Shown in pieces: positions 356 through 30,665 of a stretch of DNA of 64,000 nucleotides. Position numbers and translations under genes: made by a program. Every line of letters starts with the position of its first letter. The first letter of the stretch is position 1. The stretch is from contig CAXXTH010000017.1 in the NCBI GenBank assembly GCA_963668025.2, positions 640,001-704,000 of the forward strand, in the 5' to 3' direction. The notes below the pieces were generated by a model. That model ran no database searches. It was not told the origin of the DNA and saw only the letters and a list, made by a program, of their open reading frames with translations. This stretch comes from Candidatus Hydrogenedentota bacterium. GTDB taxonomy: Bacteria > Hydrogenedentota > Hydrogenedentia > Hydrogenedentales > SLHB01.

Positions 356-437
356 CTGCCAGGCCCCATTGCATCCTGCATTTCAACGGGCTACAGTATA
401 CAAGTAAAATCCATTACATCGGTTCAAGGAGGTTTAT

Positions 438-878
438 ATGACGATTCGAACTCTCGTCCAAGATGCGCTCAAAGAGGCCATGAAAAACAAAGATACCTTT
501 CGGCTCGAATGCCTGCGTATGGCGAAAGGCGCTTTATTGCTCAAAGAAAAGGAATCCAGCTCAGAGATTACGGAAGAACAAGCCATGGCGGCCCTGCGCG
601 CGGAAGTAAGAAAGCGGCAGCAGAGCATCGAGATTTTCCGACAACACGGGAAAGAAGAGGAAGCCCAAGAGACCGAGCGCGAGATTAGTGTCTTCAACGA
701 GTTTCTCCCCCAGCAACTATCCGAAGAAGAACTCGAAAACCGGGTGCGGGCGTATTTGGCGGCGCATCCCGAGATGAACCATCCCGGCAAACTCACGGGA
801 GCGATAAAAAAAGAACTCGGCGAACAAGCGGATGGCAAAGCCCTCAACGCCATATGCCAGCGAGTGCTTGGCGCATAA
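438..878 (+). CDS. GatB/YqeY domain protein
   Basis: 146 aa, LKEAMKNKD...EVRKRQQSIEIF...E..V..EFLPQQLSEEEL...ADGK pattern typical of YqeY. AGGAGG RBS at 428-433. Confidence 0.9.
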   Translation: MTIRTLVQDALKEAMKNKDTFRLECLRMAKGALLLKEKESSSEITEEQAMAALRAEVRKRQQSIEIFRQHGKEEEAQETEREISVFNEFLPQQLSEEELENRVRAYLAAHPEMNHPGKLTGAIKKELGEQADGKALNAICQRVLGA

Positions 879-940: not shown

Positions 941-1312
941 TCAGGCCAGTTCGTCGAACAAGAGTCCTTGCACCTGCCGAACCCGCTCCATGATTTGAAG
1001 CTGTTCCTCGGGAGGAATCTGCTGAATGATCTCACCGTCTTGCCCCATAATCTGGGCAATGACCTGTTTGCTTGCTTCATCGAGACGTAGTTTTGTCCCG
1101 GTACGTTCCAGTGCAGCACTCTGAACAGATTGCGCCTTTTCCGTTTGCGAATCGTCGGAAGCTGTCTCCGGCTCCGTCTTTGGCAAGCGCACCATGGGCG
1201 CACTCGCAGCCGCTTCCTCATTCGAGGAGCTTTCTTGCTGCGTAGTCCGAGGCTGGAACTGGGCAGCAAGGGCGGCGCGCACATCTTGACTGGCCACGCT
1301 ATTCACTGCCAT
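941..1312 (-). CDS. flaG: FlaG family flagellar protein
   Basis: C-terminal pattern LRLDEASKQVIAQIM..DGEIIQQIPPEE.L...GLLFD. Directly downstream of flagellins. Confidence 0.85.
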   Translation of the reverse strand: MAVNSVASQDVRAALAAQFQPRTTQQESSSNEEAAASAPMVRLPKTEPETASDDSQTEKAQSVQSAALERTGTKLRLDEASKQVIAQIMGQDGEIIQQIPPEEQLQIMERVRQVQGLLFDELA

Positions 1313-1349: not shown

Positions 1350-2198
1350 CTACCCCAACAACGTAAGTGCATTTTGAGGCAGGATATTTGCCTGAGCAAG
1401 CACCGACGTGCCTGAACTGACGAGGATCTGGTTCCTGGTGAAGCCTATCGTCTCTTTGGCGATATCCGCATCACGAATCTCGCTCTCGGCAGCCGTCGCA
1501 TTTTCTTCCTGCGTCGCCAGATTATTTATCGTGTAATCCAAGCGATTCTGATACGCACCCAACTGGGAGCGCATGGAAGATACGGCGTTAATCGCGTTAT
1601 CAAAGGTTGTGATGGCTGTCTGAGCCGTTGCTTGAGTCGTGAGCGAAGAAGCAACAATCGATGTCGCTCCAATGCTGCCTGCGTTGACCCGGATGCTGTC
1701 CGTCGAGAAATTCAACGTAAACGTCTCGCCGTTCTTCGCGCCGATTTGCAGAGTGATGTTGCCATACCCTGTACCGGTGCTGCTCAGCATATAGATGCCG
1801 TTGAAGTTCGTCTGCGACGCGATCGACTCGATCTGCGCCGTGAGCTGGGCGCGCTCCTTATCGAGTTCCGTCCGGTTGGTGTCCGTATTCGTGCCGTTCG
1901 CGGCCTGCACCGCCAATTCACGCATACGCTGGAGCATATTGCCCACTTCGACCAGCGCGCCTTCCGCCGTCTGCACCATGCTGATGCCGTCTTGCGCATT
2001 GCGCTGCGCCACCTCCGAACCTGTCGCCTGGGCCTTGAATCCCTCAGCGATATACAGGCCAGCCGCATCATCAGCGGCGCGGTTAATCTTCAAACCGCTC
2101 GATAAGCGCTCCAACGACGTATTCAACGCGTCAGATGACTTTTCCAGTGAACGCGAGGCGTTCATTGCCGGAATATTCGTATTGATATTGAGACCCAT
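1350..2198 (-). CDS. fliC: Flagellin (copy 3 of tandem array)
   Basis: INTN...ERLSSGLKINRAADDAAGL, QRMRELAVQAANGT, RSQLGAYQNRL, SEIRDADIA. RBS AAGGAGGG upstream of ATG 2198. Confidence 0.97.
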   Translation of the reverse strand: MGLNINTNIPAMNASRSLEKSSDALNTSLERLSSGLKINRAADDAAGLYIAEGFKAQATGSEVAQRNAQDGISMVQTAEGALVEVGNMLQRMRELAVQAANGTNTDTNRTELDKERAQLTAQIESIASQTNFNGIYMLSSTGTGYGNITLQIGAKNGETFTLNFSTDSIRVNAGSIGATSIVASSLTTQATAQTAITTFDNAINAVSSMRSQLGAYQNRLDYTINNLATQEENATAAESEIRDADIAKETIGFTRNQILVSSGTSVLAQANILPQNALTLLG

Positions 2199-2429: not shown

Positions 2430-3278
2430 TTATTGAAGCAGTTGAAGCGCTGACTGCGGCAACACATTAGCTTGCGCCAGCATGGAAGTGCCCGCGCTCA
2501 CCAAGATCTGGTTTCGCGTGAAACTAATAGTCTCTGTTGCGATGTCCGCATCACGAATCGCACTTTCCGCCGAGGTCGCATTCTCTTCCTGAACCGCAAG
2601 ATTATTAATCGTATAATCCAAACGATTCTGGTATGCGCCCAACTGGGAACGCATGGAAGACACCGCATTGATCGCGTTGTCAAATGTCGTGATAGCCGTC
2701 TGTGCGGTCGCCTGGGTCGAGAGCGATGACGCCAGAATCGATACCGTCCCAATTGTTCCTGAATTGATCCGGATGCTATCCGTCGAGAAAGTCAACGTGA
2801 AGGTTTCGCCATTCTTCGCGCCGATTTGAAGCGTGATGTTGCCATACCCGGTGCCCGCACTATTGAGCATATAGATGCCATTGAAGTTGGTTTGGGTGGC
2901 GATCGATTCGATCTGCGATGTAAGCTGGGCGCGTTCTTTATCCAATTCCGTCCGGTTGGTGTCCGTATTGGTGCCGTTCGCAGCCTGAACGGCCAATTCG
3001 CGCATCCGCTGGAGCATGTTTCCTACTTCAACCAGCGCGCCTTCCGCCGTCTGCACCATGCTGATGCCGTCTTGCGCATTGCGCTGCGCCACATCCGAAC
3101 CCGTAGCTTGCGCCTTGAATCCTTCTGCAATATATAAGCCCGCGGCATCATCCGCTGCGCGGTTGATCCGCAGACCACTGGATAGCCGTTCCAGCGAGGT
3201 TTCTAAGGCCGATGTCGATTTTTCAAGCGAACGGCTAGTATTCATCGCAGCTATATTTGTATTGATATTAAGGCCCAT
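2430..3278 (-). CDS. fliC: Flagellin (copy 2 of tandem array)
   Basis: Same D0/D1 flagellin motifs, 282 aa, RBS AAGGAGGG. Confidence 0.97.
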   Translation of the reverse strand: MGLNINTNIAAMNTSRSLEKSTSALETSLERLSSGLRINRAADDAAGLYIAEGFKAQATGSDVAQRNAQDGISMVQTAEGALVEVGNMLQRMRELAVQAANGTNTDTNRTELDKERAQLTSQIESIATQTNFNGIYMLNSAGTGYGNITLQIGAKNGETFTLTFSTDSIRINSGTIGTVSILASSLSTQATAQTAITTFDNAINAVSSMRSQLGAYQNRLDYTINNLAVQEENATSAESAIRDADIATETISFTRNQILVSAGTSMLAQANVLPQSALQLLQ

Positions 3279-3490
3279 GTTCTTTCCCTCCTTGAGCGCC
3301 CGGCGGGGAGTCCCTTCCCGCCATAGGGCTAAGTTGAATGTGGTCCATTTCCCAGCGGCCAGCTATGCTCACGCATTGTCCCTTGGCCAGCCGCCGGGAC
3401 ATTTATCTATTCGATATGCGCCCCCTTTCTTGCAAATCGCTTCATTCGTATTACCCTTCCCTTGAGCGCGCTCTACTCTTTCCAGTGTCC

Positions 3491-4342
3491 CTACTGGAGG
3501 AGTTGGAGCGCTGTTTGCGGAACCACGTTGGCCTGTGATAACACCGACGTGCCCGCGCTCACCAATATCTGATTCCTGGTAAAGCTAATCGTCTCTTTAG
3601 CCATATCCGCGTCACGAATCGAGCTTTCAGAGGACGTTGCATTTTCTTCTTGCGTTGCCAAATTGTTAATCGTGTAATCCAGCCGGTTCTGGTAAGCGCC
3701 CAACTGGGAGCGCATGGAAGATACCGCATTGATGGCGCTATCAAATGTCGTGATAGCCGTCTGCGCTGTCGCTTGAGTTGTCAGCGATGACGCCACAATT
3801 GAGGTCGTTCCAATAAGGCCGCCGTTGATGCGGATGTTATCCGTCGCAAAAGTCAGCGTAAGCGTTTCACCCGTTTTTGCGCCAATCTGGAGCGTAACAT
3901 TCCCATACCCCACACCTGCGGCGTTGAGCATGTACAATCCATTGAAGTTGGTCTGGGTGGCGATGGACTCGATCTGAGATGTTAGCTGCGCTCGCTCTTT
4001 ATCAAGCTCCGTCCGGTTCGTATCCGTATTCGTGCCGTTCGCCGCTTGAACGGCCAATTCACGCATCCGCTGGAGCATATTGCCTACTTCAACCAGTGCG
4101 CCTTCCGCCGTCTGCACCATGCTGATGCCATCTTGCGCATTGCGCTGCGCTACCGCGGAACCTTTCGCCTGCGACCGCAATCCCTCTGCAATATACAGCC
4201 CGGCTGCATCATCCGACGCGCGGTTAATGCGTAATCCACTTGATAGACGTTCGAGGCTGGTATTCAGAGCTTTTGTCGATTTGTTAAGGTTGCGGTTCGT
4301 GTTGATGGCCGCAATATTTGTGTTGACGACTAAACCTGCCAT
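3491..4342 (-). CDS. fliC: Flagellin (copy 1 of tandem array)
   Basis: Flagellin motifs. Start re-called at ATG 4342 (MAGLVVNTN) behind an ACGGAGG RBS rather than the longer track ORF. Confidence 0.95.
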   Translation of the reverse strand: MAGLVVNTNIAAINTNRNLNKSTKALNTSLERLSSGLRINRASDDAAGLYIAEGLRSQAKGSAVAQRNAQDGISMVQTAEGALVEVGNMLQRMRELAVQAANGTNTDTNRTELDKERAQLTSQIESIATQTNFNGLYMLNAAGVGYGNVTLQIGAKTGETLTLTFATDNIRINGGLIGTTSIVASSLTTQATAQTAITTFDSAINAVSSMRSQLGAYQNRLDYTINNLATQEENATSSESSIRDADMAKETISFTRNQILVSAGTSVLSQANVVPQTALQLLQ

Positions 4343-4984
4343 TGCTACATCCTCCGTGAGTACATTGTTGCGTATCCGTACGCAACTGCCCAAAATGCTT
4401 GCACGTTTTCCATAAACGCATCGTCCCAACGCGCCTGAACTATGGAAAAACATGCTCCGCTTCCAAACAATAGGCCCGAAAGCAGAACCCAGCACCGCAT
4501 CCCAGTTCGTATGGCCCCGGCTTCATGCACCTGTCCTTGTGTTATTCCCAAACAGGTATCGCATGCAGCCGCAGGCCCACGGGTCCCATGGAGTGCGCTA
4601 CTGGCGCGGCCACCCCGTTTCATTCCAGCGGCGCGTCCCACCACGCCAGACTAGAAATCCCTCAGCGCCAACTTGGCTTTCCCTGCCTGAACACGCCCGC
4701 CGCGCCGCATCTAACCGTCCCGAAAGAGTGCTTCACGCCTGCCGTGCTCGAGTCGCCGCCGAGCCTCCCCGTGAAAGGGAGACCGGATGTCCGCTCATTC
4801 AACTGTATATCCAGGTCTTGCCCTGGTTAAAGTGCTACTCCTTTCAACCGTCCTCCGTGACGGCCCCTCCGGCTTCTCGCAGCGCCCAGTCCCACCGTGC
4901 GCCACTCGCCGCCTTCGGCGATTTCCAGCATCCTTGCCTTCCGAGCCTCTGGGCGGCTTCACCAGCCACTTTCCAGCGCTCTCG
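4343..4984 (-). promoter_or_regulatory. Long GGA-rich 5' leader of the flagellin operon (candidate CsrA-binding array)
   Basis: Lies between a consensus sigma28 promoter and the first flagellin start. Manual count gives 28 GGA on the transcript strand vs 4 on the other. Includes GCAAGGATGC and the hairpin GTTGCGTA-CGGA-TACGCAAC. Confidence 0.6.
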
Positions 4985-4990
4985 ACGTAT

Positions 4991-5017
4991 TTATCGGCAG
5001 GCTTGAGCCAAACTTTA
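4991..5017 (-). promoter_or_regulatory. Sigma28 (FliA) promoter
   Basis: Minus strand TAAA-GTTTGGCTCAAGCCT(15)-GCCGATAA, an exact match to the sigma28 consensus. Confidence 0.9.
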
Positions 5018-5150
5018 GTCATTTTTTTCGAAACAACTCATTTTTTTTGAAAACAGTTTTTTAGGCGTAAAAACGCTTTGCGCCTGGCCAATCATTGTTC
5101 TAGAATATGCCCATATAAAACCGTACGGTAGTTTCGAGGAGCATACCCAC

Positions 5151-5657
5151 ATGCCTGACGCCGCCAATTTCCGCTTCGACCACTCTCTTGGCCCTATTTA
5201 TGGCTGGTTCAGCGAACGGGGCTTGCGCTGGTTGAAATTGCCCAATCCGGCTCATCAAGCTCCACGCTTGCCCCTACTCCACTCCTCCGTGAACGATATG
5301 CGCGTCTGGACACTCCATGCCGCTCTGGAACGGTATTTCGCGGGCATTCGCCAAGACTTTCAAGAGGTGCCGCTCGACCTTCAGCAAGGCACTCCTTTCC
5401 AGCACAGCGTCTGGCTCACGGCCCGGGATACCGTATGGGGTTGCGCTTCCTCATACGGCGCACTTGCCCGTCAATTGGGTAATCCCAACGCCTCCCGCGC
5501 CGTAGGCCAAGCCCTTGGCGCCAATCCTGTCCCCATACTCGTGCCTTGCCACCGCTTTCTCGCCCACGATGGCCGCTTAGGCGGATTCTCCTGCGGCCTA
5601 GAATGGAAACGGCTCTTGCTCGATACCGAAATAATCTCCGCCAAAACCCGCGATTGA
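5151..5657 (+). CDS. ogt: Methylated-DNA--protein-cysteine methyltransferase
   Basis: GTPFQ..VW, SYGALA, RAVGQALGANP, active-site PCHR. Confidence 0.92.
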   Translation: MPDAANFRFDHSLGPIYGWFSERGLRWLKLPNPAHQAPRLPLLHSSVNDMRVWTLHAALERYFAGIRQDFQEVPLDLQQGTPFQHSVWLTARDTVWGCASSYGALARQLGNPNASRAVGQALGANPVPILVPCHRFLAHDGRLGGFSCGLEWKRLLLDTEIISAKTRD

Positions 5658-5750
5658 TTTCTCCACACAAGAGAGAAATAATGCTTCTACAGATCCACTC
5701 TGACGGCATAGTGAGTATTATAATTATAGTGAGATTAGGGAGAATTCTGA

Positions 5751-6581
5751 ATGCCGGCATGCATCCATGCTCCATTTGAGGTGATTTTTCTAGGCACAAG
5801 CGGCGGATTCATGATTCCCTCGTTTCATTGTCCATGCGAACGATGCCAGGAAGCCCGGCAATCTCCCGCCAAGGCCCGGACCCGTGCATCCGTATTAGTC
5901 CGTGGCGTAGAAACCATCCTCATTGACGCGAGCGCGGACATGGCTCTCCAGTTGGAGCGGGAATCCATTCGCCAAATAGATCGCATGTTTATCACCCACT
6001 GGCACTATGACCACATCCAAGGCTTGCCCGACCTCTTAATGCCCGCTAAGTTCGGAGGATGGAAACCGGTCGAGTTATATTTTCCCTCTCAGATGGCCCA
6101 CCACTTCGATGAAGACTTGGATTACCTGAATGGCATTGTGCAGCTTCATCCCGTTGAGCCAGGCGATTGCCTCGAGCTGCCCGATGGGCGCTGGGAGGTC
6201 GTCAAGACCACCCATACCCCGGAAAGCATCGGATTCATCTTCGGAAAAAAGGAGCGCCTGGCCTATCTGGTCGATGGGGTTGTACCGCCGCTGGAAACAC
6301 AGGAAAGGCTCAAGGACGTCTCTGTCTTGGTATTGGAATCCACCTTCGATGAAATCGAACCGCCCGAGGCGAGGCAATGGCCAAACTTCCATGCCCAGGC
6401 CGCTATCGATTTCTGGAAAAAGACCGGCATTCCTAAGTGCTATCTCACCCATCTGGCGTGCCATAGCTTCATCAATGGCCTGGTCGTGGCGGGCTTTTCA
6501 GACGAGAAACGAAAAGAGCTGGAACAGGCATACTCAGGGCTGGTTTTCGCTCATGACAAGATGCGTTTTCAATTGGCTTAA
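5751..6581 (+). CDS. MBL-fold metallo-hydrolase (PhnP/YycJ-like)
   Basis: FLGTSG..P...CPCERC, THWHYDH (HxHxDH), LTHL, AHD motifs. Confidence 0.85.
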   Translation: MPACIHAPFEVIFLGTSGGFMIPSFHCPCERCQEARQSPAKARTRASVLVRGVETILIDASADMALQLERESIRQIDRMFITHWHYDHIQGLPDLLMPAKFGGWKPVELYFPSQMAHHFDEDLDYLNGIVQLHPVEPGDCLELPDGRWEVVKTTHTPESIGFIFGKKERLAYLVDGVVPPLETQERLKDVSVLVLESTFDEIEPPEARQWPNFHAQAAIDFWKKTGIPKCYLTHLACHSFINGLVVAGFSDEKRKELEQAYSGLVFAHDKMRFQLA

Positions 6582-29650: not shown

Positions 29651-29678
29651 TAAAGATTTGTCCGGTTTCCGCCGATAC
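29651..29678 (+). promoter_or_regulatory. Sigma28 promoter of the solitary flagellin
   Basis: TAAA-N16-GCCGATAC. Downstream are two CsrA-type sites, TGCAAGGATGCA and CATTCAAGGAGGAATG (overlapping the SD). Confidence 0.8.
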
Positions 29679-29753
29679 ACCAATCGGAATCAGTAAGAGA
29701 TTCCAGCCGATGCAAGGATGCAAAGGCGACAATCATTCAAGGAGGAATGAACC

Positions 29754-30665
29754 GTGGGTCTCCGGATCAATACCAATGTAGCCGCCATCAACGCCGCGCG
29801 CACACTTCAAAAATCCACCCGCGCCCTCAATGTTAGCCTCGAACGTCTTTCTTCAGGGCTTCGTATAAATAGTGCTAAGGATGATGCGGCAGGATTAGCC
29901 ATTTCTGAGGGCTTGCGAACGGTCACCAAAGGTTCAATCGTAGCGCAGCGCAATGTACAAGACGGAATCAGCTTGCTGCAAACCGCGGAAGGCGCTCTGA
30001 CAGAAACCACCAACATGTTGCAGCGAATCCGTGAACTCGCTGTCCAAGCATCCAACGGCACGAATACGACAGATGATCGAGAAGCCATTCAAGCCGAAGT
30101 AGACCAGTTGATCGAACAGATCAATTCGGTTGCCAGGGATACGGAATTCAATGGCATCCGCCCCCTGGACCCTTCTAATACCTTGCAAACAGTGAACACT
30201 GCTCCTGTTTCCACCACCGGAAAGCTGACGCTTCAAGTGGGATTGCGGGAAGGCCAGACGATGCAAATCGATTTGAAAGCGGGAATGTCCGGGATTGGAG
30301 GGTCTTCCGCCGCCGCTCTTCCAGGTGCTGGAACCTTCACGACAATCGCCGATTTGACAACGACAGGCGTCTCTACCCAGGCGAATGCAAGTGAAGCCAT
30401 TACCGCCATCGATAGCGCGATTAGCTACATATCCGATTTACGGGCCCAATTTGGAGCGCAGCAAAACCGGCTCGAATACAACTTGGATACGTTAGCAATC
30501 CAGGAAGAAAACTCATCGGCTTCTGACAGCGCGCTGCGCGACGCCGATATCGCCCGCGAGACCACTAATTTCACCCGAAACCAAATCTTGGTGAGTTCAG
30601 GCACTTCAGTCCTCGCGCAATCGAACGTCATCCCGCAAACCGCATTACAATTGCTGGGACAATAA
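29754..30665 (+). CDS. fliC: Flagellin (solitary copy, 303 aa)
   Basis: GLRINTN, ERLSSGLRINSAKDDAAGL, QRIRELAVQ, RAQFGAQQNRL, RDADIA. GTG start. Confidence 0.97.
   Translation: MGLRINTNVAAINAARTLQKSTRALNVSLERLSSGLRINSAKDDAAGLAISEGLRTVTKGSIVAQRNVQDGISLLQTAEGALTETTNMLQRIRELAVQASNGTNTTDDREAIQAEVDQLIEQINSVARDTEFNGIRPLDPSNTLQTVNTAPVSTTGKLTLQVGLREGQTMQIDLKAGMSGIGGSSAAALPGAGTFTTIADLTTTGVSTQANASEAITAIDSAISYISDLRAQFGAQQNRLEYNLDTLAIQEENSSASDSALRDADIARETTNFTRNQILVSSGTSVLAQSNVIPQTALQLLGQ

Follow-up and report, generated by a model that had tools for sequence, protein, structure and literature searches.

A long, GGA-rich flagellin leader in Hydrogenedentota as a putative multi-site CsrA target and sink

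The flagellin array and its leader

Three tandem flagellin genes, here called flaA, flaB and flaC, lie on the minus strand of a 64,000-nucleotide (nt) stretch of Candidatus Hydrogenedentota bacterium (assembly GCA_963668025.2, contig CAXXTH010000017.1, positions 640,001 to 704,000; the whole analysed stretch is called the window below). They are preceded by a sigma-28-type promoter, and the interval from the end of this promoter to the flaA ATG (4342-4340), positions 4343-4990, measures 648 nt. This interval is most likely the 5′ leader of a sigma-28-dependent flaA-flaB-flaC(-flaG) transcript and one of a class of long flagellin leaders (110-690 nt). From its sequence features we lean towards the view that the leader is a multi-site target of CsrA and a sink for this protein at once. 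The main features of the locus are the following:

4991-5017, minus strand: sigma-28-type promoter (sequence pattern; pattern count across genomes)
4343-4990, minus strand: flaA leader, 648 nt, non-coding, G-rich and highly structured (GGA statistics, fold, open reading frame and flagellin checks)
3491-4342, minus strand: flaA, flagellin of 283 amino acids (Pfam Flagellin_N 5.3e-43, Flagellin_C 5.7e-26)
2430-3278, minus strand: flaB, flagellin (Pfam)
1350-2198, minus strand: flaC, flagellin (Pfam)
941-1312, minus strand: flaG, downstream of flaC (Pfam)

The promoter consists of TAAAGTTT (5017-5010), an 11-nt spacer containing CTCAAG, and GCCGATAA (4998-4991), all on the minus strand, and it agrees with the sigma-28 consensus of the literature. 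No other sigma-28-like site occurs in the 1500 nt upstream of flaA. No sigma-70-like site was found on the transcript strand within the leader, nor any promoter-like site between 4444 and 4342. Transcription of flaA would start near 4985 and read through the leader into the gene. Contigs from four sequencing runs confirm the assembly, one of them spanning 4098-5400 with zero differences, and in a near-identical strain two pieces of the leader carry 0-1 differences.

The preliminary description of this DNA had placed a sigma-28 promoter about 640 nt upstream of the first flagellin start and had seen no credible gene between the two. Both statements agree with our results. Open reading frames (ORFs) of 99, 75, 46 and 41 amino acids on the minus strand and of 184 and 101 amino acids on the plus strand are present in 4343-4990; none of the five searched against Pfam (99, 75, 46, 184 and 101 amino acids) gave a match at E <= 0.001, the best E being 0.097. 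When nine pairs of related leaders are compared, the mismatches favour none of the three codon positions, and of 47 indels 9 have a length divisible by three. A small protein or upstream ORF was rejected, there being neither a Pfam match nor a codon-position pattern. ORFs opening from the TTG of the recurrent motif AGTTGAA, or after the decoy Shine-Dalgarno (SD) elements described below, were also rejected, as neither frame, length nor sequence is conserved.

Other identities of the interval were rejected as well. A search of flagellins against the leader by tblastn gave a best E-value of 0.14, which does not point to a decayed flagellin, and within the genome the leader matches itself alone, as would not be the case for a repeat or mobile element. 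Rfam returned two unrelated weak matches for positions 3000-6000 at E <= 10, both outside the leader, and no match at gathering score for the whole window; no covariance model of a known RNA family, including CsrB, CsrC and RsmX/Y/Z, matched the leader.

GGA hairpins and the start-site operator

The transcript strand of the leader carries 28 GGA triplets and its complement 4, exactly as counted by hand in the preliminary description. Its base composition on the transcript strand (G 243, C 146, A 137, T 122; 37.5% G) places its G content in the top 0.28% of genome windows, and 19.2 GGA are expected from single-base frequencies or 18.3 from a first-order Markov model. A count of 28 was reached in 52 of 5000 mononucleotide shuffles, in 2 of 5000 dinucleotide shuffles (18.4 +/- 3.0 GGA), and at least 28 were found in 173 of 245,226 genome windows of 648 nt (0.07%). 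The excess of GGA on one strand, which could have vanished once G-skew was taken into account, thus survives dinucleotide shuffling, but it is smaller than the raw 28:4 implies. The CsrA-like motifs that had been singled out earlier (GCAAGGATGC, CACGGAGGA twice, GTTGCGTA-CGGA-TACGCAAC, and CACAAGGACAGGTG at 4541-4528 on the minus strand) were all recovered in their places. Genome maxima of up to 38 GGA and 286 G per 648 nt lie at G000:C10 ~1095400-1096500 and C17 ~345000-354000, both on the minus strand.

The predicted fold gives a stronger signal. The minimum free energy (MFE) of the leader is -293.5 kcal/mol, compared with -255.2 +/- 6.3 in shuffled sequences (z = -6.1), and 0 of 20 shuffles fold as well. 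Folding against shuffled controls, which had been put forward as a check of the CsrA proposal, revealed an enrichment of GGA in loops: 9 of the 28 triplets lie in hairpin loops of the MFE fold, compared with 2.84 +/- 1.49 in shuffles, and 0 of 150 shuffles reach 9. Judged from these models, the presentation of GGA in hairpin loops is a stronger signal than the GGA count. Several loops belong to the ANGGAN or GGGAC type. From the promoter towards flaA, the leader holds the following elements:

4949-4976, minus strand: 5′-end stem-loop with the conserved block GCnGGAA(t)G, directly after the promoter in related leaders (fold and alignment)
4928-4937, minus strand: GCAAGGATGC, 5′-proximal site resembling binding site 1 (BS1), first half of the operator decoy (motif; related leaders)
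4882-4902, minus strand: hairpin GCGCACGGTG-GGA-CTGGGCGC, GGA presented (MFE fold)
4848-4863, minus strand: hairpin CCGTC-ACGGAG-GACGG with an ANGGAN-type hexaloop, bearing the SD-like CACGGAGGA (4859-4851) (MFE fold)
4797-4804, minus strand: motif AGTTGAAT, kept in long flagellin leaders (motif count)
4675-4687, minus strand: hairpin GGC-AGGGAAA-GCC, GGA presented (MFE fold)
4630-4647, minus strand: hairpin GGCGTG-GTGGGA-CGCGCC, GGA presented (MFE fold)
4444-4488, minus strand: terminator-like hairpin followed by ATGTTTTTCC (terminator scan)
4415-4435, minus strand: hairpin GGCGCGTT-GGGA-CGATGCGTT, third GGGAC-type hairpin upstream of the operator (MFE fold)
4367-4386, minus strand: operator hairpin GTTGCGTA-CGGA-TACGCAAC, BS1 equivalent (fold and covariation)
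4350-4358, minus strand: CACGGAGGA, GGA site overlapping the flaA SD, equivalent of binding site 2 (BS2) (alignment)

The two elements closest to flaA form the best conserved part of the leader. Our phylum set comprised 135 genomes, from which 51 leaders were aligned. The A-GGAGG columns at the start site are invariant in 51 of 51, and a nearly invariant hairpin, GCGCA-N-GGA-(T/C)-GCGC, stands about 25 nt upstream of them. The outer pairs of this hairpin covary: 85.4% of alignment cells are paired and 50 cells are changed on both sides, a result equalled by 0 of 500 shuffles, with controls slid along the alignment reaching 13-50% paired. In the 6.1-Mb genome the two-site pattern has 3 matches, 2 of which are flagellin start sites. 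By pattern and covariation, every leader ends in what is predicted to be a two-site CsrA operator of the hag/flaA type, an ANGGAN-loop hairpin followed by CANGGAGGA over the SD. The downstream flagellins have comparable elements of their own, with the hairpin GGCGGG-AAGGGACTC-CCCGCC (3322-3302) and CTCAAGGAGGG (3296-3286) upstream of flaB, and the hairpin CGGGGA-TGGGACT-CCCCG (2241-2224) and CTCAAGGAGGG (2216-2206) upstream of flaC.

Upstream of the operator, the leader carries further GGA hairpins and a second copy of the operator motifs without a gene behind it. Downstream of the SD-like CACGGAGGA at 4859-4851 there is merely a 6-codon ORF. Among the aligned leaders, 18 of 51 have a second GCANGGANGC near the 5′ end (+43 to +66), and in 13 the decoy holds both motifs, with CANGGAGGA 21-27 nt after the first, spaced as at the real start. 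No start codon follows 3-11 nt downstream in 11 of 17 of the 5′-proximal SD-like decoys, and where one exists the peptides are unrelated. The decoy has a conserved form, (c)atCANGGAGGATG, that differs from real start sites. In one relative (L025, G002:C110), a 689-nt leader contains a complete start-site module and then a 51-amino-acid ORF in which a flagellin N-terminus is fused to a flagellin C-terminus; this looks like an internally deleted flagellin gene, and hints at an origin of decoy start sites.

Single-sequence folds place a 5′ hairpin in most leaders, in a shifting register. The terminator-like hairpin at 4444-4488 could be an attenuator or a mere structural helix. With a loose criterion, terminator-like sites occur in 14 of the 51 leaders at varying places, and the 4444-4488 site is not conserved. 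Of the 51 leaders, 37 contain the motif AGTTGAA. Counted from the promoter, it lies at about +27 to +44 or about +120 to +160, usually right after a hairpin; by an arithmetic estimate, chance would account for about 1-2 occurrences.

Long leaders, fliW-csrA and small RNAs in the phylum

Flagellins from the same GTDB family fall into two classes, one with short leaders (n = 24) and one with long leaders (30 loci). In the short-leader class the promoter lies 70-85 nt from the start, and a further flagellin of the window, which serves as a comparison case, is a member:

29651-29765, plus strand: fourth flagellin of the window, with its own sigma-28 promoter and a short leader of ~75 nt

This gene starts at 29754, its product is ~56-60% identical to FlaA, and its short leader carries the two-site module, GCAAGGATGC (29712-29721) and TTCAAGGAGGA (29736-29746). 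The long-leader class heads a tandem flagellin array, and in the 30 same-family loci its promoter, 160-689 nt upstream, is nearly fixed in sequence, down to a CTAAAG within the spacer. Promoters of this class carry CT(A/C)AAG, a near second copy of the -35 box, inside the spacer, and those of the short-leader class do not. The promoter at 4991-5017 has the sequence of this signature promoter. In many relatives, a short-leader flagellin is located directly upstream of the long-leader array.

The signature promoter is present in 78 of the 135 genomes, once in each (twice in one), with 0 matches for a reversed control. In 12 other families, 30 of 30 loci have a flagellin start 110-611 nt downstream of it, and in all 60 loci examined a flagellin follows after 110-690 nt. 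All leaders have more G than C, and each of the 51 leaders tested has a negative structure z-score. Compared with the mean of their shuffles, 25 of 26 leaders from the same family and 24 of 24 from other families have more GGA in hairpin loops (49 of 50 together), an enrichment that spans 13 families; the observed count is beyond every shuffle for 12 of the 26 and 16 of the 24. Within one genus, a consensus fold of 150 pairs is common to five leaders, and 40 of these pairs show compensatory change. Homology between leaders is detectable at both ends or within genera and nowhere else, and a DNA search of the leader in 40 relatives gave a sole match of 43 nt, at the start site of one genome. The comparison with related leaders, which the preliminary description had also called for, thus found the promoter, the operator and the GGA hairpins recurring, and the long-leader design is conserved across the order.

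The genes expected of a CsrA-dependent flagellin switch, for which a search had likewise been proposed, are also there: fliW and csrA are adjacent at G000:C17:1385181-1385736 (Pfam CsrA 3.6e-26, FliW 2.3e-34), the CsrA protein having 71 amino acids (about 1385127-1385339). Among the 135 genomes, csrA is found in 104 and fliW in 105. In family f11 (handles G077-G098), csrA and fliW are each present in 1 of 23 genomes, the leader promoter in 2 of 23 and the small RNA motif described below in 2 of 23; this family is presumably a non-flagellated branch.

CsrA-type hairpins also occur outside the window. At G000:C17:1420790-1420020 (minus strand; loci L165 and L167), three tandem sigma-28-type promoters are each followed by 130-230 nt without an ORF and a similar terminator at the end. 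Five of the 13 GACANGGANGTC hairpin motifs of the genome lie in this region. The double-hairpin pattern, which consists of paired ANGGAN hairpins within 30 nt, is present in 91 of the 135 genomes, compared with 3 matches for a reversed control, and of 19 small RNA (sRNA) sites inspected, 17 have a sigma-28-type promoter whose end lies 15-19 nt before the first hairpin. These putative sigma-28 sRNAs contain AGTTGAA as well and had no match in Rfam. They are candidate CsrA sponges in a fliW-bearing phylum. Since sigma-28 sRNAs with ANGGAN hairpins occur in the same phylum, RNA-borne CsrA-type sites at the sigma-28 stage appear to be a habit of the lineage.

Proposed role, alternatives and known systems

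In Bacillus subtilis, the hag leader is about 90 nt long. As summarised in a review, this leader has two CsrA sites, one of them over the SD, and is part of the Hag-FliW-CsrA partner switch (Yakhnin 2007; Mukherjee 2011, via review PMC7652899). In Campylobacter jejuni, the flaA leader is reported to be sigma-28-dependent, to bind CsrA at GGA loops and, alongside FliW, to titrate it away from further flagellar targets (Dugar et al. 2016, PMC4894983); this leader is given there as ~45 nt, with two GGA hexaloops that probably bind one dimer. The window locus resembles hag in its sigma-D/sigma-28-type promoter, its two-site layout and the presence of fliW and csrA in the genome, and the layout of both hag and C. 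jejuni flaA is matched by the final ~45 nt ahead of the flaA start (4386-4343). With a sigma-28 promoter, one GGA site in a hairpin and one over the SD, and csrA and fliW at hand, the start-site operator is by its layout an ordinary member of the hag/flaA type, at which CsrA binding is predicted. Unlike hag, which has the two sites alone, the long leaders place 110-690 nt of additional structured RNA with GGA hairpins before the operator, and their promoter drives a tandem flagellin array. Compared with C. jejuni flaA, the window leader is ~14 times longer and has ~9 predicted loop GGAs and a putative decoy operator.

The preliminary description had likened the leader to CsrB. Its many predicted loop GGAs (9 compared with 2.84 in shuffles) on a structured non-coding RNA do recall CsrB, CsrC, RsmY and RsmZ of Gammaproteobacteria, and its GGA density, 1 per 23 nt, is of the same order as in CsrB. 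We do not count it among the CsrB/RsmZ families: the leader has no Rfam match, is probably fused to an mRNA rather than released as a separate transcript, and would be driven by sigma-28 rather than BarA-UvrY/GacSA in a lineage that has fliW. Another leader said to act on CsrA is that of Salmonella fimAICDHF, which sequesters CsrA together with CsrB/C, orders the expression of surface structures and is itself no CsrA target (cited in PMC4894983); in contrast, the window leader also holds the operator of its own gene. That a flagellin leader can titrate CsrA has been published before, with C. jejuni flaA as the example (PMC4894983). Novel aspects of the present case are its scale, its decoy operator, its conservation throughout the phylum and its occurrence beside sigma-28 sRNAs in a lineage with fliW. 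Searches of a paper library, which covered articles without their supplementary files, turned up no work from this phylum on long leaders of flagellin genes or on CsrA-related RNAs.

A mechanism can be proposed on this basis. Sigma-28 would transcribe the flagellin array together with its long leader, several CsrA dimers would occupy each leader, and binding at the start site would block flagellin translation until FliW, freed upon flagellin export, takes CsrA off. CsrA would be tied up in proportion to sigma-28 activity, the flagellin mRNA being both a target and a cis-encoded sink; because there are many sites per transcript, rising sigma-28 activity would soak up CsrA. The stoichiometry on which this depends, like the effects on other CsrA targets, is something we infer. 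Free sRNAs could assist the titration, so that the switch is sharpened and weaker CsrA targets are freed. The CsrA-sink reading is plausible, resting on sequence prerequisites.

Several points weigh against it. Composition alone predicts 18-19 GGA, and at least 28 occur in 3.3% of 1580 genome windows of similar G content, so that the raw 28:4 asymmetry is mostly G-skew and the remaining excess is real but modest. The loop counts derive from minimum-free-energy predictions of long RNAs. On the 51 aligned 5′ ends, RNAalifold predicted 0 pairs and hence no common 5′ stem-loop, so conservation at the 5′ end is limited to the sequence block, and mid-leader sequence conservation does not extend beyond the genus. 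The complete decoy module is found in just those 13 of the 51 leaders, and the two halves in the window (4937-4928 and 4859-4851) are 78 nt apart, not ~25. The terminator-like hairpin with its T-run (4488-4444) might end transcripts before flaA. As related genomes are not independent, the leader tallies describe a shared trait and not a probability, and the co-occurrence of csrA, fliW, promoter and sRNAs may track the mere presence of flagella. Finally, FliW is described as an antagonist of CsrA that does not compete for its RNA pocket (review PMC7652899), so an RNA sink would be unnecessary for the known switch.

The most serious alternative is that the leader serves its own transcript in cis, through tethered or cooperative repression, stabilisation or localisation, and barely affects the free CsrA pool. 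The conserved block and stem-loop immediately after the promoter would suit such a role, as would the SD-like element CANGGAGGATG, since 11 of its 17 examples have no start codon that could be used. A parallel exists in Gram-positive bacteria, whose STAB-SD elements stabilise an mRNA through an untranslated SD-like sequence. Each downstream flagellin has its own operator, and the B. subtilis system is reported to work at ~1:1:1 stoichiometry (PMC6529632). The 4-9 hairpin GGAs per leader, however, exceed the needs of tethering or stabilisation, and the separate sigma-28 sRNAs with similar hairpins in the same genomes are hard to explain by needs in cis. We regard a purely cis-acting leader as rather unlikely.

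It is improbable that promoter 5017-4991 mainly yields a separate non-coding RNA of ~190-540 nt, ended at 4488-4444 or processed near AGUUGAA, while flaA relies on read-through or on a promoter that escaped recognition. This would be compatible with the terminator-like site and its TGTTTTT, and the 5′ part of the leader uses the elements of the free sRNAs, GGA hairpins and then AGUUGAA. Yet no promoter-like site was found from 4444 to 4342, terminator-like sites are present in just 14 of 51 leaders and at non-homologous places, and promoter and flagellin are linked in 60 of 60 loci examined. Very improbable, finally, is a neutral spacer left by a decayed first flagellin, with its old start as the decoy and the GGA excess as a by-product of G-richness: the leader of L025 does hold a truncated flagellin ORF that has a start site of its own, decoy motifs lie at the distance of short-leader promoters (70-85 nt) and about two-thirds of the GGA count is explained by G-richness, but the window leader has no flagellin similarity (best tblastn E-value 0.14), structure z is negative in all 51 leaders, loop-GGA enrichment is repeated in 13 families, the decoy has a distinct conserved form ((c)atCANGGAGGATG), and compensatory changes preserve helices.

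A broader arrangement can tentatively be proposed, which we consider possible but short of probable. Flagellated members of the phylum would run a sigma-28-timed titration of CsrA by RNA on top of the FliW switch, through the cis-encoded leader sink and one to four free sRNAs with paired ANGGAN hexaloop hairpins and a shared AGUUGAA. This would be an independent, CsrB/RsmZ-like invention outside Proteobacteria, in a lineage thought to be without such RNAs. Control of CsrA is usually seen as divided between sponge sRNAs under BarA-UvrY in Proteobacteria and the FliW protein in other motile bacteria, and fliW is described as anti-correlated with sRNA-inducing BarA-UvrY (review PMC7652899). A fliW phylum with CsrB-scale arrays of GGA hairpins on its flagellin mRNA and on sRNAs would, if confirmed, blur that division. 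The leaders also form a natural series, from 110 to 690 nt and from 1 to 9 loop GGAs, in which the number of sites can be set against the threshold of the flagellin checkpoint. Since the phylum is uncultivated, the single-copy signature promoter and the 30-nt double-hairpin motif could serve as markers of the flagellar regulon in metagenomes and metatranscriptomes.

Some minor observations concern the surroundings of the leader. The sequence ATTCAACT at 3332-3339 (minus strand) is the exact complement of the leader motif AGTTGAAT and is not conserved in relatives. Pairing of AGUUGAAU with this complement (3339-3332, in the flaA-flaB spacer) was considered and found no support: in 88,279 nt of sequence from the downstream arrays there are 11 copies of TTCAACT, where 5.4 are expected, and all of them lie inside coding sequence except two in the window, one of which is the spacer site itself. 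The complementarity of ATTCAACT and AGTTGAAT is probably a coincidence. Downstream of flaG, a 139-amino-acid ORF (437-853, minus strand) has no Pfam match at E <= 0.001. On the other side, the promoter is flanked by a divergent gene:

5151-5654, plus strand: methylguanine-methyltransferase-like gene, upstream of the promoter (Pfam)

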